From a virus, in IMG/VR virus record IMGVR_UViG_3300042691_018174: a DNA stretch of 64,000 nucleotides. One strand, given 5' to 3'. The notes beneath the pieces were generated by a model that saw nothing but the letters and a program-made list of their open reading frames with translations, ran no database searches and was not told the DNA's origin. Within the stretch, counting starts at the first letter, position 1. Every line of letters begins with the position of its first letter. The position numbers and the translations under genes are program-made. This document shows, in pieces, positions 30,694 to 54,458 of this stretch.

Positions 30694-32265
30694 ATGGGAA
30701 AAAGTCTAGAAGGCGTATTAGTTAAAAAAGCACACGTTAGGCAGCGGTGGTCTGAAGAAGAAATCAGTCATCTTGCCAAATGTAGTGATCCTGTGACTGG
30801 TCCGGAATATTTTATACGAAATTTCTTTTACATACAACATCCTACACGCGGGCAAATGTTGTTTGAACCTTTTGAATTTCAAACTAGATTATTGTATAGC
30901 TATCATCATTACAGATTTAATGTAAACATGATGCCTAGACAAACAGGCAAAACTACCACAGCAGCTGGATATTTGTTATGGTATGCCATGTTTATTCCTG
31001 ACAGCACTATATTAATCGCTGCACACAAATATACTGGTGCTCAAGAAATTATGCAGCGTATTCGATACGCTTATGAATTATGTCCTGATTTTTTACGTGC
31101 AGGTGTTACATCATATAACAAAGGTAGTGTAGAATTTGATAATGGTAGTCGAATAGTAAGTGCTACTACTACAGGTAATACAGGTCGTGGTATGAGTATT
31201 TCATTACTATACTGTGATGAGTTCGCATTTGTGCCGCCAAACATCGCCACTGAATTCTGGACTTCTATCTCTCCTACTTTGGCCACAGGTGGTAAAGCTA
31301 TTATCACATCAACACCAAACAGTGATGAAGATCAATTTGCTATCATATGGACTGAAGCAAATAAACAATTTGATGAGTATGGTAATGAAAATGATGTAGG
31401 CATCAACGGATTCCATCCTTTTAAGGCACATTGGAGTGAACACCCAGAAAGGGATGAAGAGTGGGCCAATCAAGAAAGAAGCAGGATTGGTGAAGAAAGA
31501 TTCCGTAGAGAACATGAGTGCGAGTTCATTATATTTGATGAAACACTTATCAACAGTATAACACTCAGTGAAATGAAGGGTGTTGAACCAATAATGAAAA
31601 TGGGTCAAACTAGATGGTATGATAGAATCAAAAAAGATAAGACTTATTTGATTAGTTTAGATCCTAGTCTAGGCACAGGCGGAGATTATGCTGCTATTGA
31701 AGTTTTTGAATTACCTGGCATGGCGCAGGTAGCAGAATGGCAACATAATAATACTCCAGTACAACAACAGGTTCGTATTCTCAAAGAAATTTGCAAGTAT
31801 ATCAGTGAACAAGCAGAGCAAGTTGCAGGGTCGCCCAAAATATACTACAGCGTAGAAAATAATACCCTAGGCGAAGCTGCATTAGTGGCTATAAATGAGT
31901 TAGGCGAAGAAAACATACAAGGGTTATTTTTAAGTGAACCTATACGTAAAGGACATGTACGCAAGTTCCGTAAAGGGTTCAATACCACACATAATTCCAA
32001 AATAGCAGCCTGCTCAAAACTAAAACAATTAATAGAAACTAATACCATCAAAATAAACAGTAAAGTTCTAATATCGCAACTCAAAGCATTTATTGCCCGG
32101 GGAACTACTTTTGCAGCCAAAAGTGGGGAATCAGATGACCTAGTAATGAGTTTGCTATTGTCCGTTAGAATGTTGGGTGTTCTAAGCGATTGGGATCCTT
32201 CTGTGTACGATTTACTTAGACACGGGGAAGAAATCGTTATGCCCATGCCCATATTGATGAGTTAA
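30694..32265 (+). CDS. gp17: terminase large subunit
   Basis: PRQTGKT Walker A, LLYCDEFAF Walker B, ITSTPN, DPSLG.GGD, DDLVM. Confidence 0.97.
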   Translation: MGKSLEGVLVKKAHVRQRWSEEEISHLAKCSDPVTGPEYFIRNFFYIQHPTRGQMLFEPFEFQTRLLYSYHHYRFNVNMMPRQTGKTTTAAGYLLWYAMFIPDSTILIAAHKYTGAQEIMQRIRYAYELCPDFLRAGVTSYNKGSVEFDNGSRIVSATTTGNTGRGMSISLLYCDEFAFVPPNIATEFWTSISPTLATGGKAIITSTPNSDEDQFAIIWTEANKQFDEYGNENDVGINGFHPFKAHWSEHPERDEEWANQERSRIGEERFRREHECEFIIFDETLINSITLSEMKGVEPIMKMGQTRWYDRIKKDKTYLISLDPSLGTGGDYAAIEVFELPGMAQVAEWQHNNTPVQQQVRILKEICKYISEQAEQVAGSPKIYYSVENNTLGEAALVAINELGEENIQGLFLSEPIRKGHVRKFRKGFNTTHNSKIAACSKLKQLIETNTIKINSKVLISQLKAFIARGTTFAAKSGESDDLVMSLLLSVRMLGVLSDWDPSVYDLLRHGEEIVMPMPILMS

Positions 32266-38330: not shown

Positions 38331-39503
38331 ATGAATATTGAAGATTATTTGATGTTATTTTCTGCTCATATAAAACCGAGCAGCCACGATCATAATATTT
38401 GTTATAGCTTAGGTTATCAAGTTATGATGGGTAAGGCTTTGACTGAAAAACAATCAATCATTGCAGTCAGACTTGTCAAGAAATATCAAAATCAATTTTT
38501 AAAATTAGGGTATTCAGATGTTCTTTCGGATATTGAATCTCCCAAATTCAAATATCCTTTTAGATATGTGGACAATCAAAAGTCCGTTTCAATTTCTAAA
38601 GAATCTATTGTTGTTAAATTTCCGTTTGACCAAGACATTGTAAATCAAATTAGAGAATTAACTGTAAAATCTAGTTTTATAAAACCACAGTGGAACGCCG
38701 AAGAAAAATATTGGGGGTTAGATCTCAATGAAGAAAGTTTGAAGTTTGTTAGATTAGAATTAGTAAAAAAAGGATTTCAAATATCCGATGAAGTGAATGA
38801 TCTCTTGTCTCAATTTGATGAGATAGAAAATAATTTAGAAAATCATATTCCTATGATAGTTAAAGAAAGTAATTATTATAAGGTTATAAATTGCAACAAT
38901 ACGATTGAAGATCAAAATCTGGAAACTGTTCTGATGCATTCTTTAAAATGCGGTGTTAATACTTACGATGAAGAAGTCCTAACTGATATTAAGAATCTAG
39001 TAACAATAGATCCTATGATGGCTGTCTTCCAAAATACTGATTGTAACAACTTTCATGTTAACAGTCGAAAATTTTCTAAAGAAGATATTATAACTTTTTT
39101 AATAAAAACAGAATTAAATGTTGCATTCTTTTTTGATGATTCCTGTGACGAAGAGCATTTCTATTCTTGGGTCTCAGAATTTAAAAAGATAGATGATTTA
39201 TCTAATAAAATTGGCGCATATTTTAGAAAAAATAATTCATTAGATGATTCAGCGAAGACATTTAATAGTATTATTAAAGAAAACAAATTAAACAAAGAAG
39301 CCAATGATCCCAATGTTGAATGGTTCCTTTTAAGTTCTAAATTTCCAAAAAGTCTAGTTAAACACAATAAAAAGCCAGACATATGTGTTTTTATTAATAA
39401 ATTGATATCAACCCATTATACAGTTATGTCTTGCTTCAAAAATTGTACTATAAACTTTGTTTATACTGATCAATCTTTCGGAGAAAAAATTGTCGAATTG
39501 TAA
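38331..39503 (+). CDS. hypothetical protein with HARP-like domain
   Basis: VKFPFDQDIVNQIR...WNAEEKYW. Confidence 0.55.
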   Translation: MNIEDYLMLFSAHIKPSSHDHNICYSLGYQVMMGKALTEKQSIIAVRLVKKYQNQFLKLGYSDVLSDIESPKFKYPFRYVDNQKSVSISKESIVVKFPFDQDIVNQIRELTVKSSFIKPQWNAEEKYWGLDLNEESLKFVRLELVKKGFQISDEVNDLLSQFDEIENNLENHIPMIVKESNYYKVINCNNTIEDQNLETVLMHSLKCGVNTYDEEVLTDIKNLVTIDPMMAVFQNTDCNNFHVNSRKFSKEDIITFLIKTELNVAFFFDDSCDEEHFYSWVSEFKKIDDLSNKIGAYFRKNNSLDDSAKTFNSIIKENKLNKEANDPNVEWFLLSSKFPKSLVKHNKKPDICVFINKLISTHYTVMSCFKNCTINFVYTDQSFGEKIVEL

Positions 39504-40947
39504 AATAATTTTGAAAGACGAGGTCAATGTTAAAATAGAGAATCTTGATTTAGATACTAGAAAAAAACTAGTTTCTAAATTCAAATATGAATTACCCTAT
39601 GCAAGACATATGCCTGCATTTAAATTAGGTAGGTGGGATGGAACTGTTAGTTTTTTTGGTCTCGGTGGCACCACATACCTTAGTATGCTAGATAGAGTGC
39701 TACCTATTTTAGAGAGTGAAGGTTATGATATTCAGTTAGAAGATTTACGAATACATAATGCTTTAGAGTTTGATAAGGTAGATGAAAATTACTGGGCAGA
39801 TCAAGGAAAAACATGGCCAAAAGGCCATCCTAAAGAAGGTCAACCAATTATACTTAGAGATTATCAACCAGATGCAATCAATAGATTTTTAGAAAATCCA
39901 CAGAGTATACAAGAACTTGCTACAGGTGCAGGTAAGACTATTATGACAGCTACATTAAGTCATCTCTGTGAAAAATATGGAAGAACTATGGTCATAGTTC
40001 CAAATAAAAGTCTCGTAGAACAAACCGAAGAAGATTATGTTAATGTAGGCCTAGACGTTGGTGTTTATTACGGTGACAGAAAAGATTTGAATAAGACGCA
40101 CACTATTTGTACTTGGCAAAGTTTGAATATTTTAGAAAAAACTGGCAAGTCTAATGATGATGCTATGAAACTAATAGAATTTATTGACGGAGTCAGTTGT
40201 ATTATAGTAGATGAAGTACACATGGCTAAGGCAGATGTTTTAAAGAATTTGTTAACAGGTGCATTTGCACATTGCCCTATACGTTGGGGATTGACCGGAA
40301 CTATACCAAAAGCTGATTATGAATTTGAGGGCATAAAAGCAAGTTTGGGTCCAGTAGTCGGACAACTGGCAGCACATGAACTGCAAGAAGCAGGGCATTT
40401 AGCAAATTGTCATGTTAATATTATACAGACACAAGAATGGAAAGAATTTGGAAATTATGCTGAAGAATTAAAATATCTTGTAACTGATTCTGATAGAATG
40501 ACCTATATTACTAGTATTGTGAAGACAATTTCTGAATCTGGGAACACATTAGTTCTAGTAGATAGAATTGAATCAGGAAACTTTTTAAATTCTAAAATTG
40601 ATGACTGCGTGTTCATCAATGGAAGCGTAAAAACCAAAGACAGGAAAGAAGAATATGACGAAGTTAAAACGAGTGATAACAAGATTATTGTGGCGACTTA
40701 TGGTGTGGCCGCTGTGGGTATTAATATCCCTAGGATTTTTAATCTGGTTCTTTTGGAACCCGGAAAGAGCTTTGTTAGGGTTATACAAAGTATTGGACGA
40801 GGCATTAGGAAAGCAGAAGACAAAGACTTCGTACAAATCTGGGACTTAACAGCCAGCACGAAATATGCTAAGAGACATTTGACCGAACGTAAAAAGTTTT
40901 ATAAAGAGGCCAAATATCCATTTACAATTGACAAGGTGAAATATTAA
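39490..40947 (+). CDS. uvsW: SF2 DNA helicase
   Basis: LRDYQ, ATGAGKT, DEVH, TGT, QSIGRGIR; TTG start after GGAGA. Confidence 0.93.
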   Translation: MSNCKIILKDEVNVKIENLDLDTRKKLVSKFKYELPYARHMPAFKLGRWDGTVSFFGLGGTTYLSMLDRVLPILESEGYDIQLEDLRIHNALEFDKVDENYWADQGKTWPKGHPKEGQPIILRDYQPDAINRFLENPQSIQELATGAGKTIMTATLSHLCEKYGRTMVIVPNKSLVEQTEEDYVNVGLDVGVYYGDRKDLNKTHTICTWQSLNILEKTGKSNDDAMKLIEFIDGVSCIIVDEVHMAKADVLKNLLTGAFAHCPIRWGLTGTIPKADYEFEGIKASLGPVVGQLAAHELQEAGHLANCHVNIIQTQEWKEFGNYAEELKYLVTDSDRMTYITSIVKTISESGNTLVLVDRIESGNFLNSKIDDCVFINGSVKTKDRKEEYDEVKTSDNKIIVATYGVAAVGINIPRIFNLVLLEPGKSFVRVIQSIGRGIRKAEDKDFVQIWDLTASTKYAKRHLTERKKFYKEAKYPFTIDKVKY

Positions 40948-41461: not shown

Positions 41462-41728
41462 ATGGGAACTTTAAAACCTGGAGCAACATATATCTATGAA
41501 AAGGCTGACGGCATAACTTATGCTAGAGAATTTGGTGCAGAGCCGTCCGAAAGAAGAATAATTGGTTGGGATAGTAGAACCAGTGACGGTAGATCACTGC
41601 ACGATCATATAATGGAAGATAAGATGTGGGGAGAAATGCGTCGTATGGCTAAAACCAATCCTGCTTTACAACATGCCCTAGATCAGTGTATAATAATTTA
41701 TAATTTGAGTAAAGACCATGGCACTTGA
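41462..41728 (+). CDS. hypothetical protein
   Basis: GAGGA RBS; YIYEK.DG.TYARE. Confidence 0.75.
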   Translation: MGTLKPGATYIYEKADGITYAREFGAEPSERRIIGWDSRTSDGRSLHDHIMEDKMWGEMRRMAKTNPALQHALDQCIIIYNLSKDHGT

Positions 41729-42173
41729 TATTAAACGAGAATTGTCAGCAGTAGATCTTCGGGATAAAAATTTTTATAGCAATCTTACTGAGGAAGAACA
41801 AAAAGAATTTAATCCTTATATATTAATGAGATTTGTCAGCAATGTAGATGGCAACGCTGATTTGCAAGAATGGTTCGTGCTAATGACTAATGAACTAATC
41901 AATAAAAATCATTGGCAGTTTAGTAAAAATCATAAAGGCTTACTTTGGAAATTATATTCAGGAGTTGGTGCAGGATTTAAAGTATACCACTCTTATCTTG
42001 CAGCCGGTAAAGCTGAAAAAGCAAATAAAATTGAAAAATTGATAGCAGAACTCAATCCTACAATGAAAATGAGTGATGTAAAACTATTAACAAGCCTAAT
42101 GGATAAAAATGACATCGAAGATCTTTTTAACAAGCTGGGGTACGACAAAAAGCAAAGAAAAGCGTATGAGTAA
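41718..42173 (+). CDS. gp62: clamp loader small subunit-like protein
   Basis: FNPYILMRFVS...NE.IN pattern resembling T4-like gp62. Confidence 0.55.
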   Translation: MALDIKRELSAVDLRDKNFYSNLTEEEQKEFNPYILMRFVSNVDGNADLQEWFVLMTNELINKNHWQFSKNHKGLLWKLYSGVGAGFKVYHSYLAAGKAEKANKIEKLIAELNPTMKMSDVKLLTSLMDKNDIEDLFNKLGYDKKQRKAYE

Positions 42174-42846
42174 CTATGAGTGCGTACATTGTGGCAGAAC
42201 ATATTCTAAAGAAAGTACTTTAGTTGCCCATATGTGCGAACAAAAAAGACGTGCTCTACAAAAAGATGAAAAAAGAGTGCAAGCAGGATACATGGCATAT
42301 AATAGGTTCTACAGACTTACACAAAATGCTAAAAAAGACAAAACATATGATGAATTTTGTAAAAGCCCATACTACAACGCATTTGTAAAATTTGGTAGCT
42401 TTATTAATAATATCAATCCATTATATCCAGATAAGTTTATCGACTTTGTCATTAAATCTGGGGTGAAGTTGGATCATTGGTGTCGAGATGAATTATATGA
42501 CACATATCTTTCAGAAATGATTAAAGTCGAACCAGCAGATGCTGCCATACAAAGAACTCTCAATACTATGATGGAATGGGCAGAAGAGCAAAGTGCAAAT
42601 TTTGCTCATTACTTCGATTATGTAAATTTAAACCGAGCAGTATATCATATTTCGAATGGAATGATAAGTCCTTGGATATTGCTTAATACTGATTCTGGTA
42701 AGTCATTATTATCAAAATTAAATGATGAACAATTAACAATAATTGGCGACAAAGTTGATCCTCTATATTGGGTTAAGAGATTTAAAACTTATCCTAGTGA
42801 AATTGTGTTAGTTAAAGAAATATGTAAAGAAATTGGATTAAAATAA
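42166..42846 (+). CDS. C2H2/C2HC zinc-finger protein
   Basis: YECVHCGRTYSKESTLVAHMC; TAATG-coupled to the next gene. Confidence 0.75.
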   Translation: MSNYECVHCGRTYSKESTLVAHMCEQKRRALQKDEKRVQAGYMAYNRFYRLTQNAKKDKTYDEFCKSPYYNAFVKFGSFINNINPLYPDKFIDFVIKSGVKLDHWCRDELYDTYLSEMIKVEPADAAIQRTLNTMMEWAEEQSANFAHYFDYVNLNRAVYHISNGMISPWILLNTDSGKSLLSKLNDEQLTIIGDKVDPLYWVKRFKTYPSEIVLVKEICKEIGLK

Positions 42847-43424
42847 TGCCTGACATAGACATTGATTTTTATGACAGAGAATCTGCTTTAAAAATTATAA
42901 AGCATATTCCTGCTTCTAGATATGAAAATAATGAATTAAAGAAGCATAATACTGGCATATATCTTCATCAAATTCCTGTAGATAAAATTAATAATATGTC
43001 AAGTATTGATTATGACGTTGCAGAAGATCGTGGATATTTTAAAATAGATTTTTTAAATGTAAGTCTTTATAAAGATATAAAGAATGAAGAACACTTGCAA
43101 CAACTAATGAATCAGGAGCCGTTATGGGATCTATTGGAACAAGAAGAGTTCAGCAAAATGTTGTTTCACGTCGGAGGTCACGGGTCTATCTTAAAAATGA
43201 TGAAGCCCCAGAATGTAGAACAGTTAGCAGCAGTATTGGCTATGATACGCCCTGCGAAGAGGAATTTGATTGGACTACCATGGGATACGGTGATGACACA
43301 AGTGTGGATACGCCCTGAAAACGACGATTACTTTTTTAAGAAAAGTCATGCAATAGCATACGCAGTCGCAGTAGTAGTTCAAATGAATTTAATATGTGAA
43401 AAAATTAGTTACGGATTTTCTTAA
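42846..43424 (+). CDS. miniature C-family (DnaE-like) DNA polymerase catalytic core
   Basis: PDIDID, KHNTG, KIDFL, AMIRP, YFFKKSHAIAY in DnaE order within 192 aa. Confidence 0.85.
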   Translation: MPDIDIDFYDRESALKIIKHIPASRYENNELKKHNTGIYLHQIPVDKINNMSSIDYDVAEDRGYFKIDFLNVSLYKDIKNEEHLQQLMNQEPLWDLLEQEEFSKMLFHVGGHGSILKMMKPQNVEQLAAVLAMIRPAKRNLIGLPWDTVMTQVWIRPENDDYFFKKSHAIAYAVAVVVQMNLICEKISYGFS

Positions 43425-43794
43425 CAGCTCTTACTAACTGAATACTTTTTCTTTTAACCCGTTTCTCGGCTATCTCATTTAGATTTACTATAGGGCCAAA
43501 AACATGCTCAACATCTTTACTATTCAAAGTTTTTATATACTTTTTGTAGTCTATGAGCTCGCCTTTGAGGAATATGTTGATTGGGATTTTTCTGTTACTT
43601 TCCCACCACCATTGTTCCCCTAAATCTAGGAAATTTTGACGAAGAGCGTTGTCCACTATGGCTGCAAGGTCATATATGCTTGTAACGCTTTCATTTTGAT
43701 TGATTATGATCCCTACGATTTCAATATCATTGCATCGTATGCAGGTCAGAAACGGAAATGTTGTTTTTAATAATTCGTTGACTTGTTTCACCAT
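43405..43794 (-). CDS. hypothetical protein
   Basis: 129 aa, WWWESNRKIPINIFL. Confidence 0.75.
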   Translation of the reverse strand: MVKQVNELLKTTFPFLTCIRCNDIEIVGIIINQNESVTSIYDLAAIVDNALRQNFLDLGEQWWWESNRKIPINIFLKGELIDYKKYIKTLNSKDVEHVFGPIVNLNEIAEKRVKRKSIQLVRAVKKIRN

Positions 43795-44602: not shown

Positions 44603-45586
44603 ATGAGTCAACTGCAAATAGAACTGCTTTCCTACCTACCTTTTAAAAGAAAGCAGACTCTTTCTGGATGGTTGAGTTTTGATGCACCTTGCTGTGTACA
44701 TAATGGTGAAAGCGCAGATACTAGACAGCGTGGCGGATTTATCAATCATGCCGTAGAAGGATTTAGCTACCATTGTTTCAATTGCGGATTTAAAACTAGT
44801 TGGCAATCTGGAAGACAGCTATCAATAAAAAATAAAAAATTTTTTAATTGGTTGGGAGTTCCAGATCATAAAATTAATGAGTGGAGCATCGAGGCACTAA
44901 AGCTATTAGATAACTCAGATTCAAAAAAGAAAGAATATAAAGAGTTCTTAGAAAAAGCATTGCCCATAGACAGCATACCATTAAAAGATGCTATATTAAA
45001 ATATCAAGAAGCTATAGAATGTTTAGAATATGTACTAAACAGAGGTTTAGATTTAGAAACTATAGACTGGCATTATTGTCCTTTACCAGGATACAAAGAT
45101 AGAATCATTATACCATTTAACCATTCTAAAAAATTAGTAGGGTATACTGCTAGGAAAATAAAATCAGGTTCTCCGAAATATCTAAGTGAGAGTCAAAGTG
45201 GGTATGTCTTTAATGTAGATAATCAGAGCTATAAAAGCAAAGTAGTATTTGTAACTGAAGGACCCTTTGATGCACTGGCAGTAAATGGAGTTGGTATTCT
45301 TACTAACATTCCAAATGAACAACAAACTGCTATTATCAATAGTTTAGGTAAGACTGTAATAGTAATTCCAGATAGAGACTACCCAGGTATGAGTTTAGTT
45401 GAATACGCTATGGAAAATGATTGGCTAGTTTCTATACCAAATTGGGAAGAGAGTATTAAAGATGTCAGTGAAGCTGTGGAAAAATATGGTAAGTTATTTG
45501 TAATCAAAAATGCCTTAGACACTGCTACAGATAACAAAATAAAAATAGAATTGTTTATGAAAAAACATCCAAAGGAGGCAGCATGA
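44603..45586 (+). CDS. gp61: DNA primase
   Basis: Zn ribbon (PCC...YHCFNCG), TOPRIM TEGPFDA and PDRD. Confidence 0.9.
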   Translation: MSQLQIELLSYLPFKRKQTLSGWLSFDAPCCVHNGESADTRQRGGFINHAVEGFSYHCFNCGFKTSWQSGRQLSIKNKKFFNWLGVPDHKINEWSIEALKLLDNSDSKKKEYKEFLEKALPIDSIPLKDAILKYQEAIECLEYVLNRGLDLETIDWHYCPLPGYKDRIIIPFNHSKKLVGYTARKIKSGSPKYLSESQSGYVFNVDNQSYKSKVVFVTEGPFDALAVNGVGILTNIPNEQQTAIINSLGKTVIVIPDRDYPGMSLVEYAMENDWLVSIPNWEESIKDVSEAVEKYGKLFVIKNALDTATDNKIKIELFMKKHPKEAA

Positions 45587-45771
45587 AAGAAGTAAGACCT
45601 TATACTAGATGGATTGATAATCAAGGTAAAAAAATTTTAGTAATTGCGGTAGTAGAATTGGATAAACGTACATGGGTTTATTTTAGAACGATGATTACTG
45701 ATGATGAAAGTCATGGAGAAGAAAGTTGCTATCTAGAAACTTTTATAGAAAGATTTAAAGAAGATATATAA
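45583..45771 (+). CDS. hypothetical protein
   Basis: GGAGG RBS, ATGA overlap. Confidence 0.7.
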   Translation: MKEVRPYTRWIDNQGKKILVIAVVELDKRTWVYFRTMITDDESHGEESCYLETFIERFKEDI

Positions 45772-45775
45772 CAAT

Positions 45776-47221
45776 ATGAATAAAACTAATTACGGCTTTG
45801 ATATACAAAAACTTTATCTAGAAATGTTCTTGAGTGATGCAGAAACATTTGTTAGATGTCAGAACATTTTTGATTCAGAAAATTTTGATAAGAAGCTTAG
45901 AGATTCGGCAGATTTTATTAATACATATGTAGACAAATACAAGATCATGCCTGAACTAGAAATAGTTAACACTAGTTGTAGTTCAGATTTTAAAGATGTA
46001 TCAGACTTACCAAAAGAAAATTATGAATGGTTGTTGGATGAGTTTGAAAGATTCAGTAGACATAAAGCACTAGAAAGAGCAATTATTAAAAGTGCTGATC
46101 TTCTGGAAAAAGGGGAGTTTGGTCCTGTAGAGATTATGATCAAGCAGGCTGTACAGATTAGTCTCAATAAAGACATGGGAACAGACTATTTTGAAGACCC
46201 ACGTGGTCGTTTGATGGGTCTTAAAGACAAAAATGGACAAGTGAGCACAGGATGGCCAGTATTCGACAAGAAGTTATTTGGAGGTTTCAACAGGGGAGAA
46301 CTGAATATCTTTGCCGGGGGATCGGGGGCAGGGAAGAGCTTATTTTTACAGAATTTAGCCATAAACTTCAGTCAGGCGAACTTAAACGTATTATACGTTA
46401 CTCTGGAATTGAGCGAACAGCTAGTAGCTATGAGATTAGATTCTATGATGACTGGTTTGCCGACACGAGAGATATTTAAAAGTATTGATGATGTTGAATT
46501 AAAAGTTAAAATGGCAGGAAAAAGCCAAGGAGCAATACAAGTAAAATATATGCCTTCTGGAAAGAATATTAATGATCTACGGGCATATATCAAAGAGTAT
46601 CAAGTGAAGAAAGGGCATAAGCCTGATGTTGTATTAATTGACTATTTAGATTTGATGATGCCGATCAGTGTTAAGGTCAGTCCCAGTGACTTGTTTGTTA
46701 AAGACAAATATGTATCAGAAGAAATTCGAAACTTTGCTATGGAACAACAATGTGTATGCGTCACTGCATCTCAATTAAATCGTAGTGCTGTTGAAGAAAT
46801 TGAATTTGATCACAGTCATATCAGTGGAGGATTAAGTAAGATCCAAACAGCTGATAACGTCATAGGCATCTTTACCAGTCGTGCTATGCGTGAACGTGGT
46901 AGATATCAAATACAGTTTATGAAAACACGTAGTAGCAGTGCTGTAGGTCAAAAGATAGATTTAGATTTTAATCTTGATAGTTTACGTATCACTGATCCAG
47001 GAGAAGATGGTGACGAGTCTAGCTTTAGTCAAGGCGGAGGAAGACCACAACCTAGTTCCGGAACTGCAAGTATACTTGACAATCTTAAAAAGTCCAGCAC
47101 AGTAATAGATAAAGAAGATAGAGAACCTTCTGAAGGAGTTACTGCTGGAAAAATTAAAGGCAAATTAGACGGCAGTCGTATTAGAGAAATGTTGGCAAAT
47201 ATTAACAGCGAACGAGATTAA
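45776..47221 (+). CDS. gp41: replicative DnaB-like helicase
   Basis: GGSGAGKS, TLELSE, IDYLDL, TASQLNR, KTR. Confidence 0.95.
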   Translation: MNKTNYGFDIQKLYLEMFLSDAETFVRCQNIFDSENFDKKLRDSADFINTYVDKYKIMPELEIVNTSCSSDFKDVSDLPKENYEWLLDEFERFSRHKALERAIIKSADLLEKGEFGPVEIMIKQAVQISLNKDMGTDYFEDPRGRLMGLKDKNGQVSTGWPVFDKKLFGGFNRGELNIFAGGSGAGKSLFLQNLAINFSQANLNVLYVTLELSEQLVAMRLDSMMTGLPTREIFKSIDDVELKVKMAGKSQGAIQVKYMPSGKNINDLRAYIKEYQVKKGHKPDVVLIDYLDLMMPISVKVSPSDLFVKDKYVSEEIRNFAMEQQCVCVTASQLNRSAVEEIEFDHSHISGGLSKIQTADNVIGIFTSRAMRERGRYQIQFMKTRSSSAVGQKIDLDFNLDSLRITDPGEDGDESSFSQGGGRPQPSSGTASILDNLKKSSTVIDKEDREPSEGVTAGKIKGKLDGSRIREMLANINSERD

Positions 47222-48447
47222 TCAAATTGATTATAAAGTTTTGTATTGGCTAGCTGGTCTAAAAATTCTTTTTTATCTTTTTGCCATTGATCCTCTGTAC
47301 CAAGCCAGTGTGAATCGGTAGACATTGATCTCTTCTTTCCACCTTTTTTGTATGTGCCAAAACGTATTCCAGACACCAAAAATTTTCCTGTAGGTTTTCC
47401 ATCATCGTCAGTTTCTGGAATTTTGTAAACTGTGTAAGGTCCAACTTTTTCCATCTCGCCAGGCGCACCATACGAGAAATTGACATTTTGAAATCTGTCA
47501 TGATCTAATTCATCGTAACTATGGAAAATATCTGCACCACTCTTTGATTTGTATGCAGATTTGATAGAATTGGATCCTTTTTTACGGTCACGTCCAAGTG
47601 CAGCCAATGCCTCCACTCCTCTACCATGAACCTCTTTATCTATTTCTGGTCTAGCGCCAGGATGCTCTACTGGTCCTAAAACATTTTTACTATGATCATG
47701 AGGACTATCTACAGTCAAATCTACGCCAGTATTATAACCTGCTCTGTTGACATCACGTGCCATGTGAATATTAAATGACACATTTTTATCTGTTGCATCT
47801 GGAAAATAATATTTCAAACTTCGTGCAATGTCTGCATCACTGTGGCCAGATTTAACTAAGAAACTAGCTACACCGTCCATTTTATCGCCGTATCCATGAA
47901 ATTTATCCAAAGGAGGTATTGGTAAAACATCTTGAGGAGCTTTAGAATCATGTACTCCTTTATGCCAGTTACCAGTAAGAACACTGCCATTAGGTAATTG
48001 TACCAAAGTGCCATCACCTGAATAACGGAACGGAGCATCTAGTATTCCTGGTTTATCATCGTGATACCCAGTTGCTCTACGTACTTCGTCTGGAATAGAA
48101 ACTAGCACCTGACCTGCATATTTGCTGTCCATTTGTTTTCTTGCTCGCGCATAACCTGGTTGTTTGTCAGCGTCCCATGCTTCTGGATTGGTAATGATAG
48201 CATTTCCTTGGATCTTACCAGCACCTCGATATCCACCGGGGGGTTCTTTTCTTTCTTCTCCAGGATTATGCCAAGCTCGATGCCATGCCTGTTCAGGCTG
48301 TTTTGTTGTTGCATCAACCGCGTCTGCGTTTTTAGTAATAAGTGATGAATTTGGAACTTTGGCAGTATTAGTAGGTTCAGCACCTTGAGCTACGGGTCGT
48401 TCTGATTCTAATTCTTCAAGAATATTTAAAATGTCTCGTATATTCAT
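47218..48447 (-). CDS. hypothetical protein (possible internal head protein)
   Basis: 409 aa, MNIRDILNILEE start, TAAATA (48455-60) 7 nt upstream. Confidence 0.65.
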   Translation of the reverse strand: MNIRDILNILEELESERPVAQGAEPTNTAKVPNSSLITKNADAVDATTKQPEQAWHRAWHNPGEERKEPPGGYRGAGKIQGNAIITNPEAWDADKQPGYARARKQMDSKYAGQVLVSIPDEVRRATGYHDDKPGILDAPFRYSGDGTLVQLPNGSVLTGNWHKGVHDSKAPQDVLPIPPLDKFHGYGDKMDGVASFLVKSGHSDADIARSLKYYFPDATDKNVSFNIHMARDVNRAGYNTGVDLTVDSPHDHSKNVLGPVEHPGARPEIDKEVHGRGVEALAALGRDRKKGSNSIKSAYKSKSGADIFHSYDELDHDRFQNVNFSYGAPGEMEKVGPYTVYKIPETDDDGKPTGKFLVSGIRFGTYKKGGKKRSMSTDSHWLGTEDQWQKDKKEFLDQLANTKLYNQFD

Positions 48448-48462
48448 AATTTAATATTTATT

Positions 48463-49017
48463 TTAAGACATCCAGTCTTTGACCATACTTTTGGCACAGT
48501 GATGTACACATTCTGTCCAAAGATCCAGTTCGTCCAATTCAAATACAGTTTCTAAATCTGGTTCACCAATTAGCCAACTGTGTTCTGGTCGCCAAGGTGG
48601 CAAACCAGCCATCTCCCCTTCTAACTGACCAGGACCCCAAGTGCAGACTCCTATGATAGTTCTTAGATACCTAGGACGTTCTCCATCTATGAGCTTGCCA
48701 ATAAATTCCATATCATTACTGATACAAATACCACTAGGAGACATTATAGTTTCGGAACTGATTACATCGGCACTGTGAAACAACACCAACTTGTGTAATT
48801 CCATGGGACCGCCCAAGTGTACAGATCCTCCCAGTCTAAGATCAATTCCTGCACGTTCCATTATTTTACTGGAAGGTATATTTGATGATCTATTAATAAT
48901 GACTCCCCAGCTGCCTGCATCATTGTGTTCTGCTATATAGATCACAGTGTTGGCAAACCTCCTATCAATGATGTTAGGAGGGCTGACTAATATTTTGCCT
49001 GTGTAGTTTTGGTTCAT
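48463..49017 (-). CDS. YqgE/AlgH family protein
   Basis: D..F..TVIYI.EH...GS.GVIINR, GGP, G...W.PGQLE.E. Confidence 0.9.
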   Translation of the reverse strand: MNQNYTGKILVSPPNIIDRRFANTVIYIAEHNDAGSWGVIINRSSNIPSSKIMERAGIDLRLGGSVHLGGPMELHKLVLFHSADVISSETIMSPSGICISNDMEFIGKLIDGERPRYLRTIIGVCTWGPGQLEGEMAGLPPWRPEHSWLIGEPDLETVFELDELDLWTECVHHCAKSMVKDWMS

Positions 49018-49022
49018 ACTAA

Positions 49023-49042
49023 TATTTACCCATAGATAAATA
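49023..49042. promoter_or_regulatory. back-to-back TAAATA late promoter cores
   Basis: Minus core 49023-28 (5 nt to ATG 49017); plus core 49037-42 (7 nt to ATG 49050). Confidence 0.7.
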
Positions 49043-49049
49043 TCATATC

Positions 49050-49769
49050 ATGAAGATTTTTGAATTTCAATTACCAGTAACTTTTCACAATCAATTAAAT
49101 CCTAAGTTATGGAAGGACGAGGAATTATTGCCTGAAGTAAGATTAAAACTATTGGCCTCGGCCAGGGAGTTTATATCTTTCTTAAAGATGGAGAACTTGC
49201 CGCTCCGGGACATAGTCATAACTGGCAGTAATACCAATCTCACGTACACTGATAAAAGCGACCTTGATCTACACATCATCGTAGACATGGATAAAATATA
49301 CGACGGCAATGACCTAGTGAGACAGTTCTTTGACAGTAAGAGACGTCTGTGGAACAAGACCTATGATGTCACAGTTAGATCCATACCTGTGGAAGTCTAT
49401 GTAGAGGACAACGACGAAACTGTACAGGGCAATGCCTTCAGTTTGATGTCAGCGCAGTGGCTGAAACGTCTTCCCTTGGACCGAGTAGATATCAATGAAC
49501 GCAGTGTTAAAGCCAAATATCTACAGATGGTGCGTGATATCAAACGTGCTCTAGAACGTGCAGACAGCACAGATGATTTCACTAGATTGATGAAAAAGAT
49601 CAAAGACTATAGGCAGTCGGGCTTGGATCGATACGGTGAATTCAGTACCGAGAACCTAGTGTTCAAAAGTCTCAGGAACAATGGCTGGTTAGAGACCATA
49701 GATCAACAGCGCACAGAGTTAGTTAACAAGATGTTGAGCCTTAAAGAAAAACAAGACATTTTCGTCTGA
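49050..49769 (+). CDS. Pol-beta superfamily nucleotidyltransferase
   Basis: ITGS..., SDLDLHI, VEVYVED. Confidence 0.85.
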   Translation: MKIFEFQLPVTFHNQLNPKLWKDEELLPEVRLKLLASAREFISFLKMENLPLRDIVITGSNTNLTYTDKSDLDLHIIVDMDKIYDGNDLVRQFFDSKRRLWNKTYDVTVRSIPVEVYVEDNDETVQGNAFSLMSAQWLKRLPLDRVDINERSVKAKYLQMVRDIKRALERADSTDDFTRLMKKIKDYRQSGLDRYGEFSTENLVFKSLRNNGWLETIDQQRTELVNKMLSLKEKQDIFV

Positions 49770-49865
49770 TTCTTTAAAGAAACAGTTAAAAATACAGCCA
49801 GAATTTTAAAGTTTTTAAAGAAAAATAGACGAAATTAACACCGTTTTAAAAAGAACACATACTAC

Positions 49866-50111
49866 ATGCAGAACAATAATAAAAAGCGCAATATCACAGA
49901 AAGAATCACCAATTTGAATCAAGAGATCAATAGTATCAGCCAACAGTTGATACAACAGCAGGATCTAGATCAAAAACTGGCGCTACAGCAGACCATAGAC
50001 AGCCGAAGAGCTCAGATCACCGAACTGCACGTGACACTGGCCGTTTTGGATCAACAAGAGATAGCTGCCGTACAAGAGAAAATACAGGGCACCACTAGAT
50101 TCAGGATTTAA
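49866..50111 (+). CDS. Gln-rich coiled-coil hypothetical protein
   Basis: 81-aa ORF. Confidence 0.55.
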   Translation: MQNNNKKRNITERITNLNQEINSISQQLIQQQDLDQKLALQQTIDSRRAQITELHVTLAVLDQQEIAAVQEKIQGTTRFRI

Positions 50112-50144
50112 CTGTGCTGAATACCCCTGCTGTTAAATATCCGT

Positions 50145-50480
50145 ATGAAATTACAGCAAGTAGACAAATTACCACAAGGCTCGCGCAGTTTCCTCACAGT
50201 CACAGCCCAGGCCCAGCAGAAGATACGGGATCTAGTTAGGATCTCCCCACCGGGCTGCTTTCGCATACGTGCAGACATAGGATCTAAGACCACTGATTGG
50301 ACCTTTGCCTGGGACGATCAATTCAAAGATGAGGATTTTGTAGTGGACATTGACGACATAGAAATAGTCATGGATGCCACTACCATAGCCTACATCTTGG
50401 ACGAGTACACCCTGGACTTTGAGCTGGATCAGTTCAGCATATTCAAGAATCCCCTGGGTGCCCTAAGGCATCAGCAGTGA
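50145..50480 (+). CDS. IscA/HesB-like protein lacking canonical Cys motifs
   Basis: LTVT.QA..KI, IVMD......I....LDF, F.NP; TAAATA 5 nt upstream. Confidence 0.6.
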   Translation: MKLQQVDKLPQGSRSFLTVTAQAQQKIRDLVRISPPGCFRIRADIGSKTTDWTFAWDDQFKDEDFVVDIDDIEIVMDATTIAYILDEYTLDFELDQFSIFKNPLGALRHQQ

Positions 50481-51034
50481 TCACTGACTTATTCCCCCAG
50501 CCCATATGGATCAGGGATTCGGAACACGCTTGGGACTATAGATCCATGATATCGGCTGCAGAGCCCTGGGCCCGGCCACATGCGCTGACAGTTCAAGGAC
50601 AGAGTACCTACGCACAGCGACGTCAGATATTGGAACTACCTGAGTTCCACAAGCTGCACACATGGTTGGATTCTGAAGTCAGCACTTATCTAGACCTAGT
50701 GGGTTCAGTGAACAAGGTCACAGTGATCAACAGCTGGGTCAACTGGAATCCACCGGAGAGCAGCACAGACAGGCACTCACATCAGCTCAGTCGTGTCAGT
50801 GGTGTGTTTTATCTAGAAGCCGAACCCTGGTGCAGTCCCCTAAGACTGTACAGTAATCAAAGGCAGTTCCAAGGTTATGATTTCATCAGCAGGGAAACAG
50901 ACTACAATCAGCAGTACAGGGACATAGGCATATGCAGAGGCAGACTGATATTGTTCCCGGGCTGGATGGAACACTCAGTGCCCAAGACCGCTGGCCCACG
51001 CACTGTACTGAGTTTCAACACTGTGTTCGTTTAA
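50477..51034 (+). CDS. putative 2OG-Fe(II) oxygenase (TIGR02466-like)
   Basis: SWVN, HSH..SGVFY, LILFPGW.EH.V, R..LSFN. Confidence 0.85.
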   Translation: MITDLFPQPIWIRDSEHAWDYRSMISAAEPWARPHALTVQGQSTYAQRRQILELPEFHKLHTWLDSEVSTYLDLVGSVNKVTVINSWVNWNPPESSTDRHSHQLSRVSGVFYLEAEPWCSPLRLYSNQRQFQGYDFISRETDYNQQYRDIGICRGRLILFPGWMEHSVPKTAGPRTVLSFNTVFV

Positions 51035-51615
51035 ATTTCCACCAAGGTCAGTTCAGATTCACGACCCATGGTTCCCCGGAACTGTGTGTTAAAGCTCAGA
51101 GTGATGCGTCTCCGATCCGTGTGATTCACAGGCACAGCATGCGGTATCCAGCTGGGAAATAAGATCAACTCGCCACGATTTACAGTGATCACTTCTACAT
51201 CTCTAAGCTGACTGCGTTCTCCCAATTGATAGTTGCCCGAAACATTGCTGTGGAACTCTATATAGTTAGGTCCCTCAGTGAGATAGTATACTCCGCTGAC
51301 TGCACTGTTTAAATGTCTATGCTGATGATGACTGCTGCCCGGTTCATTGAAATTCAACCAACTCTGCGTGATAGCTAGTTCAGCAGTGGTCACATCCAAT
51401 ACCTGTTCACAGTACTGCTGTAGACTGCTGTTTATATGATCTCGTAGCTGATGGAAGTTATCATAACAGTTCAAAATCCTAGACTCTTCACTGGTACGAT
51501 TATAGGTATTGGTTCTACTGCGCTGAAAACAGTAGCTTAACACTGAATCTATATTGGGGAAATGCCTAGCCGGAAATCTAGCCATGGGCACTGAGAGTAA
51601 TGACTGTATATGCAT
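51031..51615 (-). CDS. putative 2OG-Fe(II) oxygenase (TIGR02466-like)
   Basis: QSWLN, HRH.NS.VSGVYY, LILFPSW..H.V, RITLSFN. Confidence 0.88.
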   Translation of the reverse strand: MHIQSLLSVPMARFPARHFPNIDSVLSYCFQRSRTNTYNRTSEESRILNCYDNFHQLRDHINSSLQQYCEQVLDVTTAELAITQSWLNFNEPGSSHHQHRHLNSAVSGVYYLTEGPNYIEFHSNVSGNYQLGERSQLRDVEVITVNRGELILFPSWIPHAVPVNHTDRRRITLSFNTQFRGTMGRESELTLVEI

Positions 51616-51629
51616 AATACACTAATTAG

Positions 51630-52083
51630 CAGTGAACCGCCATGGCCCAGAGTGGTTTTGATAGCCCCGCAGGGGCCAGCGACACTGGCGGCGCAGCCGC
51701 TGCGAAGCAGAGCAGCGCGATAGTCGCAGTTGGCACCTTTTGGCAGGGAAGGATACTTCACAGTGATTCTACAGTACGCATACAGTACGCATACAGTGAG
51801 TCACTGAGTGACTGCATTGGCAGACCAGCGTAAAAGAAACAATTACTGAACAGTAGAAGTCGCGGGACCGAAAGGGTCTACACAGTGTAAAAATCTGCTG
51901 CGCAAAATTTTTAAAAGTCGATTTTTTCGACCCCCACCACTTCTTAACCAGTGGGTTCGTGATTTTGGGCAATTTGTAAAGTTAGGAAAAAGTTTGAGTA
52001 GACTTGCGGGCTGTTGCTTTTTTACAACAGTTGTGTATATAAGCCACCACCCACCTACCTGCTGACATCAGCCACCACCACCA
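51630..52083. other. structured non-coding hinge (candidate origin, packaging or terminus site)
   Basis: Chain of mini-hairpins 51664-51727, 11-bp tandem repeat 51770-51797, A/T tracts, CCA repeats. Confidence 0.45.
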
Positions 52084-52401
52084 TTAATATCCACAGCCCC
52101 TGACGTCGCTGTTCAGTGACGGCTTCAACTGGGCTATCAACTCTCGCTCACGAGCATGTGCCGCAGCCTTGCCACGCACGATCTCTAAAGGGCGTATGTC
52201 TATAAGCTCCTTGCTGGCTAGTGTGCGCAGAGCTTGGCATAGTAGCCAACCCTTCTGCTCCACTGTGGCTCTGTAGTAGTGCTTATGGGCACGGCGTTGT
52301 AGACTGTGCAACACTGTCTTGTCTTTGTATGTGATACCAATGTAGCTCTGCTCATCTACACGGATCTCGTATATGATATGATTGCGTAGTTTAACGGACA
52401 T
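52084..52401 (-). CDS. GIY-YIG nuclease domain protein
   Basis: IIY...YIG, R..H, RERELI..LKPSLN; ATG after GGAG. Confidence 0.8.
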   Translation of the reverse strand: MSVKLRNHIIYEIRVDEQSYIGITYKDKTVLHSLQRRAHKHYYRATVEQKGWLLCQALRTLASKELIDIRPLEIVRGKAAAHARERELIAQLKPSLNSDVRGCGY

Positions 52402-52432
52402 AGTGTGCTCCAGTGCTTTAGTGTATGTGTGT

Positions 52433-52461
52433 AGTATAGCATCAAAGGTATTACCTGTCAA
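52433..52461 (-). promoter_or_regulatory. early sigma70 promoter P1
   Basis: TTGACA-17-TATACT. Confidence 0.9.
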
Positions 52462-52591
52462 CTCATATTGTGAATACCCATAAAGGGTGGCGGGGGATCT
52501 TATCGTAGGCCACTACCCCACGAACCCCCCGCCGTTTTGCTGGGACACTACTCCCAGCGGGTGTGACCCATTGCGGGCCACGGAGCAATCT

Positions 52592-52933
52592 TTAGTCTAG
52601 TCTACTGCCAGCATAGGCTTTCACGCCCAATGTCTGTGTGAGGTATTCAGCGGCAGCTTCTGCACCTGCTTCCAGTGTGTCCACATTCTGTACACACATC
52701 TCGCTGGGATTCCACAGTTGCAGTCCACCTGAGTAGCTCTTACGGAATCCTGCCTCGATCAATGCACGGCCCAACTTGGTTGAACCTTTCTCATATACAG
52801 TGACCCAAGCAAAGCCACAGGCGTATTGGTCACGCCCACCCAACTTTTCCATATAGAACTTCTTAGCGGCTAGACGTGCTTGTGCTTTAGCGCCTTCTAC
52901 GAACGAAATAACTTGCTCTTTGGTGTATGACAT
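52592..52933 (-). CDS. hypothetical protein
   Basis: CGFAWV motif; AAGGAG RBS. Confidence 0.85.
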   Translation of the reverse strand: MSYTKEQVISFVEGAKAQARLAAKKFYMEKLGGRDQYACGFAWVTVYEKGSTKLGRALIEAGFRKSYSGGLQLWNPSEMCVQNVDTLEAGAEAAAEYLTQTLGVKAYAGSRLD

Positions 52934-52963
52934 TTCAGCTCCTTAGTGTGTTACAGTCTTTAT

Positions 52964-52992
52964 AGTATATGCTCAGTGACTGGTTTTGTCAA
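52964..52992 (-). promoter_or_regulatory. early sigma70 promoter P2
   Basis: TTGACA-17-TATACT. Confidence 0.9.
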
Positions 52993-52999
52993 CCGTTTT

Positions 53000-53188
53000 T
53001 TAGTCTATCCAACCACAGAGTTTAGTGGCCAATACAGTGCAGAACACTCCAGTGCCTAGACACAGTGCGCCCACTGCTAGATTCAGTAGACCTGGAGTGG
53101 TCCAGCTCTGGCCGGCTACATAGAAGTTGATGAAGGCTATGAAGAATTGCAGTGCGCCCATGAGTTTGAAAAATTTAGTGTCAGTCAT
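53000..53188 (-). CDS. small membrane protein
   Basis: Two hydrophobic helices; RBS. Confidence 0.8.
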   Translation of the reverse strand: MTDTKFFKLMGALQFFIAFINFYVAGQSWTTPGLLNLAVGALCLGTGVFCTVLATKLCGWID

Positions 53189-53218
53189 TTCAGTTCCTTA
53201 GTGTGTTAGTGTATGTGC

Positions 53219-53247
53219 ATAATAGCACAGGGTTTAGGTTTTGTCAA
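53219..53247 (-). promoter_or_regulatory. early sigma70 promoter P3
   Basis: TTGACA-17-TATTAT. Confidence 0.9.
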
Positions 53248-53249
53248 CC

Positions 53250-53461
53250 GAATTCTTGTCTAAGGCCACGCTGTTCCACGGTCGCCCCTTAGCGGAGTTG
53301 TTGCCCTGTCCCGACACTAATCAGCATCTGCTACGTAGTGTCCACGCCGCTGGGTTGTCTGAGGTTCTTAGGCCTCGCTGTCGGTGCCCCAGCCACCGGG
53401 ATTCTATCGTTTACCACACGCTACTTTCAGGAAAGTAGTAACCGGAATCTCTTATAACTAT
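53250..53461 (-). ncRNA. candidate structured ncRNA 1 (~210 nt)
   Basis: Own promoter, no RBS or ORF, at least 6 helices plus a pseudoknot. Confidence 0.7.
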
Positions 53462-53467
53462 GACTGT

Positions 53468-53496
53468 ATTGTACAGTCATTTCTCTCAGCTGTCAA
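53468..53496 (-). promoter_or_regulatory. early sigma70 promoter P4 (drives ncRNA 1)
   Basis: TTGACA-17-TACAAT; -10 lies inside ATGACTGTA-TTG-TACAGTCAT palindrome. Confidence 0.85.
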
Positions 53497-53499
53497 CGG

Positions 53500-53688
53500 T
53501 TATCTGTAACCTGCCTGCCTGATGATCAGTGTGCCAATCCACATGAACAGGAGACCCAGGCCACTGACCGCAAGACTCTGCACCAGCTCTGTGTCTGTGA
53601 CACTGTTCTCAACACCGCCCACTCCCAACATGGTCAAGAGTATACCCATCACTACAAAAATCATTGCCTGGCTGTCTTGGCTCATCAT
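53500..53688 (-). CDS. small membrane protein
   Basis: Two hydrophobic segments. Confidence 0.75.
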   Translation of the reverse strand: MMSQDSQAMIFVVMGILLTMLGVGGVENSVTDTELVQSLAVSGLGLLFMWIGTLIIRQAGYR

Positions 53689-53927
53689 ATCTCTGCTTCC
53701 TCTGAGTATAGTATATCCACTGCTTCACTGTAGCCGTCTACACGGTAAACTTCCTTATAGGGTTCACCGGATCCTTGACTGTCCTGTACCACGACCAAGA
53801 TGTCATCGTATTCGGCCCACTCAGCACATTCCCGTTTGGCAGCTTCTAGATCTTCTGTACTGTGTACAATCTGATTGAACTCTGTGATCACTAGATAGTG
53901 ACGAGTGTAAGGACGTTTAGTTTTCAT
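53685..53927 (-). CDS. hypothetical protein
   Basis: ATG 1 nt after upstream stop. Confidence 0.75.
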   Translation of the reverse strand: MKTKRPYTRHYLVITEFNQIVHSTEDLEAAKRECAEWAEYDDILVVVQDSQGSGEPYKEVYRVDGYSEAVDILYSEEAEI

Positions 53928-53928
53928 A

Positions 53929-54183
53929 TCAATCAATGACCACTACACGGCGTACTAGTGTATTAGTCTCGCCAGTGTCCTCATCGTATTCATCATAGTC
54001 TTCTTCTATTGTGACCAACTTGTCCATGCGGTGGTAGTCGCTGAACTCTACAATGCCTTCGCTGACACGGCTAACACGGGGTGCAACCTCAGTCCTCCAA
54101 TGATCGCCATAGTTGTAGGCAAAGTGGACTTCTGCGTCCTGGTCCATGTACTGCAATGATTCGATCAGTTCTGCTACTTTCAT
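53929..54183 (-). CDS. hypothetical protein
   Basis: MKVAELIE.L..MD.DAEV phage motif; RBS. Confidence 0.85.
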   Translation of the reverse strand: MKVAELIESLQYMDQDAEVHFAYNYGDHWRTEVAPRVSRVSEGIVEFSDYHRMDKLVTIEEDYDEYDEDTGETNTLVRRVVVID

Positions 54184-54214
54184 TTCCGCTCCTTAGTGTT
54201 TAGTGTATGTGTGT

Positions 54215-54243
54215 ATAATAGCACAGATTTTATCTGTTGTCAA
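54215..54243 (-). promoter_or_regulatory. early sigma70 promoter P5
   Basis: TTGACA-17-TATTAT. Confidence 0.9.
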
Positions 54244-54458
54244 CCTTCTATCCAACAATCCCTGGCCAGCTCTGTGGTTATTGTCTGTCCACCAATGTAG
54301 TCCCCTGAGAACCCATACTTGCTTTCCAGTGTAAGGCTAGTGCCCGCATAGGTCTTCTTGATGGCAGTGATAACACCTGACTGTTCGATGTCTGACTTGA
54401 AGCAGACTACGTCTCCTACTGTGACCTCTTGGCCGTCTACATATGCTATCAAGCTCAT
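54240..54458 (-). CDS. hypothetical protein (SH3-like)
   Basis: V.VGD.V.FKSDIEQ.G.I; RBS. Confidence 0.8.
   Translation of the reverse strand: MSLIAYVDGQEVTVGDVVCFKSDIEQSGVITAIKKTYAGTSLTLESKYGFSGDYIGGQTITTELARDCWIEG

Follow-up and report, generated by a model that had tools for sequence, protein, structure and literature searches.

A probable C-terminal half of a split minimal DNA polymerase III alpha subunit in a jumbo phage replication module

Introduction

Jumbo phages of group 2.2 carry a "minimal, split Pol III alpha", which was described from sequence by Iyer, Anantharaman, Krishnan, Burroughs and Aravind in 2021 (Viruses 13:63, PMC7824862). In the passages of that paper that deal with this protein, cooperation with a family B enzyme is suggested, either for the synthesis of one strand or for repair, and the mini Pol III alpha is proposed as a model of the ancestral enzyme. 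Our literature search found no paper after 2021 that reports a bench test of it. Here, we describe a member of this family encoded by an open reading frame (ORF) at positions 42846–43424 of a 64-kb stretch of viral DNA (IMG/VR record IMGVR_UViG_3300042691_018174; the whole stretch is referred to as the window, and positions are counted from its first letter). The product of this ORF is called piece B, and the separately encoded half of the enzyme, which carries a GxGRGS motif, is called piece A. The window ORF probably encodes the C-terminal half of the two-gene minimal Pol III alpha of group 2.2 (RaK2/PA5oct/Atu_ph07-like) jumbo phages, most likely an auxiliary polymerase. It is a further clean member of a family known since 2021, and its piece B shows no substantive difference from those described.

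Sequence features and conservation of piece B

The ORF is uninterrupted and encodes 192 amino acids (aa), beginning with MPDIDIDF, so that the first three aspartates are D3, D5 and D7. It continues with KHNTG (residues 33–37), KIDFL (66–70, containing D68), AMIRP (132–136) and FKKSHAIAY (164–172). A first-pass annotation of this DNA had reported DnaE motifs in this order, and every one of them was found at the residues it gave. The DxD strand is followed in piece B by the third Asp (D68) and by reduced fingers, in which the RPAK and KKSH motifs are found. The protein was assigned over its whole length to phrog_11778 ("DNA polymerase", E 2e-65) in the PHROGs database. A search of Pfam gave a weak fingers match below threshold, and the NCBIfam DnaE models scored 10–20 bits against cut-offs of 434–1806. 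Judged from its sequence, the window protein has the three-Asp palm of C-family polymerases, but not their full multidomain chain of more than 1000 aa.

Full-length homologues of piece B with 39–53% identity were found by tblastn in 96 isolate phage records, all of them from jumbo phages akin to RaK2, 121Q, PA5oct, Atu_ph07 and Phosso. Relatives are present at no fewer than 542 loci of IMG/VR (at least 542), and an exhaustive search over 1.84 billion cluster representatives yielded 441 clusters (50% identity) at E values up to 0.001, nearly all of them ~190 aa long. In an alignment of 95 sequences, with identity down to 27%, D3, D5, K66, D68 and P136 are invariant, and D7, H34, G37, R135, K138, K165 and H168 are each at least 90% conserved. 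An alignment of piece B starts shows M1, P2, D3, D5 and D7 to be invariant. No frameshifts or stops were seen in the homologues across 82 loci. The invariance of active-site residues across such diverged homologues indicates purifying selection rather than decay of a fragment. On these sequence grounds, we regard piece B as a selected, miniaturised C-family polymerase module, which upholds the corresponding claim of the first-pass annotation; the constancy of length, Asp triad and synteny among homologues, which it had named as a check, was likewise observed (for synteny, see below). The alternative that the gene is a functionless, decaying fragment of a captured host dnaE might be suggested by its small size and by the lack of a Pfam call above threshold, but hundreds of diverged homologues of constant length, an invariant triad, a break point fixed between the two halves and a confidently predicted fold make it extremely unlikely.

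A megablast search of isolate phages with a 10-kb section of the window as query gave no match, and a word-index search for longer relatives of piece B found none. One protein of 233 aa (P0135) shares the first ~110 residues of piece B and then continues into an unrelated C-terminal part; it is probably the product of a chimeric contig or a frameshift, not a genuine architecture.

Predicted structure of piece B

An AlphaFold2 model of piece B, computed with the 95-sequence alignment as input, has a predicted local distance difference test (pLDDT) score of 95.7 and a predicted template modelling (pTM) score of 0.86. In a Foldseek search of the PDB, the best 17 matches to this model were all Pol III alpha or PolC. 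With VIA-align, 188 of the 192 residues can be superposed onto residues 461–841 of Taq Pol III alpha (3e0d_A) with a Z score of 9.8 and a root mean square deviation (rmsd) of 3.5. Similar scores were obtained for Mycobacterium tuberculosis DnaE1 (residues 419–811, Z 9.6), PolC (971–1296, Z 9.4) and Escherichia coli alpha (2hnh, 400–784, Z 8.9), whereas the nearest non-polymerase chain reached a Z score of only 3.1. D3 and D5 align with Asp463 and Asp465 of the Taq enzyme, and the counterpart of D68 in M. tuberculosis DnaE1 lies in the KxDFL strand. Taken with the PHROGs assignment and the collinear profile match described next, these structural matches put the homology to DnaE well beyond chance.

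A profile alignment with M. tuberculosis DnaE1 matches residues 1–13 of piece B to 413–425, residues 54–137 to 567–663, and residues 160–174 to 773–787. As computed from the boundaries of these segments, the thumb region is represented by 40 residues in piece B compared to 141 in DnaE1 (~100 missing), and the interior of the fingers by 22 compared to 109 (~87 missing). Nothing in piece B corresponds to DnaE1 beyond approximately residue 811. Compared to E. coli alpha, ~190 of the 385 residues spanned are deleted. The profile alignment, the fold match and a search of relatives for the PHP domain (below) together bear out the earlier proposal that the thumb is largely deleted and that the PHP, clamp-binding and OB domains are absent.

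Piece A, the separately encoded half of the palm

Searches of complete relatives with PF07733 identified a second, separate ORF of 155–177 aa that matches positions 18–98 of the model. This piece A was recovered from the phages Phosso, Atu_ph07, PA5oct, RaK2 and XacN1 and from the IMG/VR contigs G002, G004 and G005. All six complete or near-complete relatives that were checked (Phosso, Atu_ph07, PA5oct, RaK2, XacN1 and G002) were positive; G002 is 100% complete according to CheckV and its piece B is 70% identical to that of the window. Piece A contains an invariant GxGRGS nucleotide-binding loop. Its profile aligns to residues 410–454 of the Taq enzyme and 322–392 of the E. coli enzyme, and piece B begins at Taq residue 461. 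Thus, the two pieces follow one another within a single palm domain, and the gap between them amounts to about five residues. All 58 distinct piece A sequences from IMG/VR end exactly 35 residues past the first glycine of GxGRGS, with the C-terminus [ED]F[LF]R, so the break point between A and B is fixed to the residue. The distance between the two genes is 15 kb in XacN1, 33 kb in RaK2, 43 kb in PA5oct, ~180 kb in G002 and Atu_ph07, and 224 kb in Phosso. Piece B is gp264 in PA5oct, where the piece A gene is found near 187.8 kb, and ORF124 in RaK2, where it is found near 149.1 kb. A split intein was considered and ruled out, since piece A ends in ...EFLR and piece B begins with MPDIDID, which leaves no room for intein halves.

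The exhaustive representative search also recovered three proteins in which A and B form a single chain, P0079 (375 aa), P0151 and P0152 (both 376 aa), from three separate metagenome samples. In P0079, piece A comes first and piece B occupies residues 190–371, with a nine-residue linker that joins ...EFIK to ADFDID. The fusions are 78–81% identical to each other (P0151 and P0152 share 81% and 78% identity with P0079, respectively). PF07733 matches residues 12–121 of P0079, across the A/B junction, with an E value of 4.8e-16 and above the gathering score. The contig L199, which carries the fused form, keeps a convergent gene for a 119-aa protein downstream (1641–2000). Such natural single-chain fusions (Rosetta-stone proteins) indicate that A and B function as a single unit, and they offer convenient material for a first biochemical assay.

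These results bear directly on the first-pass annotation, which had taken the 192-aa protein for a whole enzyme. The three catalytic Asp residues, the two fingers motifs, a confident stand-alone fold and a conserved length could be reconciled with piece B being a self-sufficient miniature polymerase or nucleotidyltransferase. However, piece B lacks both the GxGRGS loop and the preceding Pol-beta strand, which are found on the conserved piece A. With the GxGRGS half of the palm on a separate gene in every complete relative (six of six complete or near-complete genomes) and with natural A+B fusions, the reading as a lone enzyme is very unlikely. The same annotation had stated that DnaE domains encoded elsewhere, as a conventional split gene, would speak against a minimal enzyme. 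This was found for the GxGRGS half only; the complete relatives searched yielded no further DnaE parts, and the two halves together amount to only ~350–375 aa.

The PHP domain (PF02811) was not detected in five complete relatives (G002, Phosso, Atu_ph07, PA5oct and RaK2) with a model that was positive in all 14 control genomes. The fingers model PF17657 gave weak matches in these five genomes, confined to piece B. A family B polymerase of ~890–1010 aa is present in Phosso, Atu_ph07, G002, G003, G004 and G005, and in every relative tested except one contig that is 56% complete; none was seen within the window, so that this enzyme is known from the relatives only. The search for a family B polymerase and for other DnaE pieces, which the first-pass annotation had recommended, is thereby answered for the relatives.

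The surroundings of the piece A gene differ between phages. In XacN1 (L200, record positions 133–138 kb), RsoM2USA and RAS14, it lies within the UvsW module, 3–4 kb upstream of the gene pair for the 151-aa and zinc-finger proteins described below. In XacN1, the only one of the three whose gene map was viewed, it adjoins a clamp-loader gene, and piece B follows 11 kb further on. In G002, piece A is followed by genes for a GroES-like co-chaperonin and then a MazG-like pyrophosphohydrolase, and in Phosso and Atu_ph07 a GroES-type gene is located two genes downstream, with a MazG-like gene a few genes away on the upstream side (L094:531-1237 on the minus strand, L010:5242-5592, L011:3585-3920 and nearby).

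Gene neighborhood and the zinc-finger protein

Piece B is embedded in a syntenic block (Table 1) consisting of genes for a UvsW-like helicase, 168-aa, 88-aa and 151-aa proteins, a zinc-finger protein, piece B, a convergent 129-aa protein, a structural protein, primase and DnaB. The synteny of this block is kept over the 82 loci and in PA5oct and RaK2. The UvsW-like helicase is 49–56% identical to those of Phosso, Atu_ph07, PA5oct and RaK2, which are at the equivalent position, as are annotated primase and DnaB genes in relatives. The window contains UvsX-like, UvsW-like, primase, DnaB, sheath and terminase large subunit genes in the same order as in RaK2, PA5oct and Atu_ph07. The convergent gene beside piece B is kept in all lineages examined, namely at all 82 loci, in PA5oct and RaK2, and in the lineage with the fused form (L199).

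The genes for the 151-aa protein, the zinc-finger protein and piece B are tightly packed. The TAA stop codon of the zinc-finger ORF (42844–42846) has one base in common with the ATG of piece B (TAATG), and the probable ATG start of the zinc-finger ORF at 42166 overlaps the stop codon of the 151-aa ORF (42171–42173), giving an overlap of 8 nucleotides (nt); both arrangements had been pointed out by the first-pass annotation and were read again in the sequence. That annotation had also noted a TTTACA-18-TATAAT element upstream. The site exists, and it is the best sigma-70-like match within 38–46 kb, with 11 of 12 consensus bases. The same interval contains 35 sigma-70-like sites compared to 40.5 ± 5.5 in shuffled sequences, so that sites are not enriched and the element is only a consensus match, a lead to a promoter from which the three genes might be transcribed.

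The zinc-finger protein has a C-x2-C-x12-H-x-C finger whose ligands (C6, C9, H22 and C24) show no variation among 20 sequences. Pfam gives a weak zf-C2H2 match, NCBIfam gives nothing, and the ESM Atlas contains only unnamed viral clusters related to it. Its AlphaFold2 model has a pLDDT of 90.6. No convincing structural relative was found for this fold, with no Foldseek match at E <0.6 and a best VIA-align Z score of 4.5. A relationship to T4 gp59 (1C1K) was not indicated either, with an hhalign probability of 0.2% and a Z score of 3.3, no better than noise, for 97 residues of the C-terminal domain; the Pfam gp59_C model found nothing in the five relatives. For the 151-aa helical protein, the earlier label "gp62-like" is unsupported, since hhalign gave a probability of 0.2% for T4 gp62 (and 0.4% for gp33) and a PDB profile search gave nothing relevant.

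The zinc-finger protein, either alone or together with the 151-aa protein, could be a dedicated subunit of the mini-polymerase, taking over DNA binding or replisome docking from the missing thumb and clamp-related parts. The zinc-finger gene lies upstream of piece B at 81 of the 82 loci and likewise in PA5oct and RaK2; the two genes abut or overlap each other in the window, as they do in PA5oct and in a lineage of just ~38% identity (L198), and they are nearly equally widespread (93 and 96 phage records). However, the entire block from UvsW to DnaB is syntenic, so a common distribution is not specific to this pair. The two genes are also 11 kb apart in XacN1, are separated by one to three genes in Phosso, Atu_ph07 and RaK2 and by up to 2.7 kb at some IMG/VR loci, and the fold of the zinc-finger protein offers no functional clue. 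A single complex prediction with piece A of G002, piece B and the zinc-finger protein, in which the last was the scored partner, gave ipSAE values of 0.00 and 0.04 compared to a mark of 0.32 and points neither way. The link between the zinc-finger protein and piece B is therefore suggestive, not specific, and a dedicated subunit seems unlikely. The more elaborate picture of a modular C-family polymerase made of three or four small proteins, in which the zinc-finger protein and perhaps the 151-aa protein replace the lost parts beside a family B replicase, is distinctly improbable.

Proposed function

The sheet of Pol-beta-type nucleotidyltransferases has the GS loop and the DxD strand next to each other. 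As the break between piece A and piece B falls between these two elements, the active site is expected to be shared by the two halves, neither of which should have catalytic activity without the other. Piece B would supply the metal-binding residues D3 and D5, the third Asp (D68) and the cut-down fingers (R135, K138, K165 and H168), while piece A would bring in the strand that comes before them and, with GxGRGS, the loop of this fold that binds the triphosphate. The halves would assemble non-covalently, without intein halves. We infer that they form a heterodimer, and that this heterodimer is catalytically active and acts on DNA. The assembled protein of ~350 aa would retain the GS loop, the three Asp residues and a pair of basic motifs in the fingers, with nothing to grip duplex DNA or a clamp. 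Its most likely role would be that of a low-processivity, distributive auxiliary DNA polymerase, which would work alongside the family B replicase to fill gaps, extend primers or take part in repair.

Several points weigh against this interpretation. A tblastn search found no piece A in the 64-kb window, and none was found in G001, a 36.8-kb fragment that is the nearest record to the window; for this particular phage, we infer a piece A gene from its relatives. Lacking a thumb, a clamp-binding motif and an OB fold, the enzyme may carry out templated synthesis weakly or in reliance on further partners, and it could act on a substrate other than primed DNA. The literature yielded no data on the biochemistry, genetics or expression of any family member, and these genes do not appear in the main text of the PA5oct omics paper.

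Alternatively, A and B together could be an active nucleotidyltransferase other than a template-directed DNA polymerase, serving in terminal or untemplated addition, protein nucleotidylation, or the synthesis of signalling or anti-defence nucleotides. A family B replicase would already be available to the phage, the mini enzyme has none of the parts with which DnaE holds a primer-template (thumb, clamp-binding and OB), and the Pol-beta superfamily includes many non-polymerase transferases. Nevertheless, the fingers motifs that have been kept (RPAK and KKSHAxAY) are those common to replicative DnaE and PolC, and the model superposes onto a 385-residue span of DnaE palm and fingers, well beyond the core transferase fold. 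In addition, the gene is located within a replication module, with UvsW on one side and primase and DnaB on the other. We therefore consider a non-templated activity rather unlikely and favor the auxiliary DNA polymerase.

With ~350 aa in two chains, the enzyme would represent the smallest known catalytic core of a C-family polymerase, and as such would reveal which parts of DnaE its role can do without. The family is widespread, occurring in hundreds of lineages among isolates and metagenomes, including PA5oct and RaK2, which are phages studied for therapy.

Other features of the window

The 2292-aa structural ORF, the sheath and the terminase large subunit confirm the jumbo myovirus setting (Table 1). 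The G+C content of the window changes from ~0.35 over 1–48 kb to ~0.46 over 48–64 kb, and the GC skew changes sign; the high-G+C part (48000–64000) contains densely packed small ORFs. The independent IMG/VR contig G001 is collinear with the window across the G+C step at 98–100% identity, so the step is not an assembly chimera. The sole stretch in which the window and G001 diverge contains the 409-aa ORF just past the DnaB gene, for which there is no PHROG or Pfam match. This stretch aligns only in short pieces of 68–72% identity compared to 98–100% on either side, and it resembles a cassette that has been swapped or evolves fast. Two 2-oxoglutarate (2OG)-Fe(II) oxygenase paralogues are arranged convergently, and the only tRNA gene of the window is a tRNA-Met.

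Table 1. Features of the window, with the loci of two natural A+B fusions on other contigs
Feature	Position	Strand	Remarks
Virion structural/baseplate-wedge-like ORF, 2292 aa	7086-13964	+	phrog_5838, E 6.5e-251
Tail sheath, 1200 aa	19053-22655		
Terminase large subunit	30694-32265		
UvsW-like superfamily 2 (SF2) helicase	39457-40947	+	Pfam ResIII, DEAD, Helicase_C; start of module
TTTACA-18-TATAAT, sigma-70-like match	41665-41694	+	possible promoter of three-gene run; inside preceding 88-aa ORF; 11/12 consensus bases
151-aa helical protein	41718-42173	+	phrog_11758 (function unassigned), E 1.3e-23; always directly upstream of zinc-finger gene
Zinc-finger protein, 226 aa	42166-42846	+	phrog_11058; N-terminal C2HC zinc finger and all-helical domain; TAATG-coupled to piece B
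Piece B, probable C-terminal metal-binding half of split minimal Pol III alpha	42846-43424	+	phrog_11778, 95-sequence alignment, AlphaFold2/VIA-align
129-aa protein	43405-43794	-	phrog_11637, E 7.5e-31; converges on piece B, 3' overlap 20 nt
Primase	44603-45586	+	Pfam DNAG_N; downstream end of module (44603-47221, with DnaB-like helicase)
62-aa ORF between primase and DnaB	45583-45771	+	
DnaB-like helicase	45776-47221	+	Pfam DnaB_C
409-aa ORF	47218-48447	-	
2OG-Fe(II) oxygenase paralogue	50477-51034	+	phrog_81; 3' overlap 4 nt with next
2OG-Fe(II) oxygenase paralogue	51031-51615	-	phrog_81
tRNA-Met (CAT)	59352-59429	-	
A+B fusion, contig L111	L111:1066-2193		
A+B fusion, contig L199	L199:519-1649		

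Comparison with known systems

The two-gene enzyme has in common with DnaE and PolC (Taq 3E0D, E. coli 2HNH, M. tuberculosis 5LEW and Geobacillus kaustophilus PolC 3F2B) a Pol-beta-type palm, three Asp residues, two fingers motifs and the GS loop, which it carries on piece A. DnaE and PolC, however, are single chains of 1100–1400 aa, compared to ~350 aa in two chains, and the mini enzyme is devoid of the PHP domain, thumb, clamp-binding motif, HhH and OB domain. Nor is the mini enzyme the main replicase of its phage.

In cyanobacteria, the C-family catalytic subunit is produced from two distant genes, dnaE-n and dnaE-c, which carry intein halves and whose products are joined by protein trans-splicing. 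The encoding of one C-family catalytic subunit by two genes far apart is shared with the phage system. In contrast to the cyanobacterial protein, which is spliced to full length, the junction of the mini enzyme is located inside the palm, and there are no intein halves.

Phage-encoded C-family polymerases are also found in jumbo phages of group 3.2 (the Bacillus phage G type) and in SPbeta-like phages of Bacillus, and piece A is 37–39% identical to these full-length DnaE proteins over the GS-loop region. According to the passages of PMC7824862 that treat them, these polymerases are host-like single chains with a PHP domain that act as the main replicase, unlike the split mini enzyme.

The closest system is the split Pol III alpha of Iyer et al. 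As presented in the relevant passages of PMC7824862, it likewise has a unit of ~190 aa starting from the DxD motif and an N-terminal nucleoside triphosphate-binding unit encoded far away, with no other Pol III domains and with a family B polymerase alongside. It is found in the same group of phages (RaK2, PA5oct, Atu_ph07 and 121Q), with whose proteins that of the window is 39–53% identical. Those passages do not mention the natural fusion of both halves in one chain, the constancy of the break point to the residue or the two conserved upstream neighbors (the C2HC zinc-finger and 151-aa proteins) described here.

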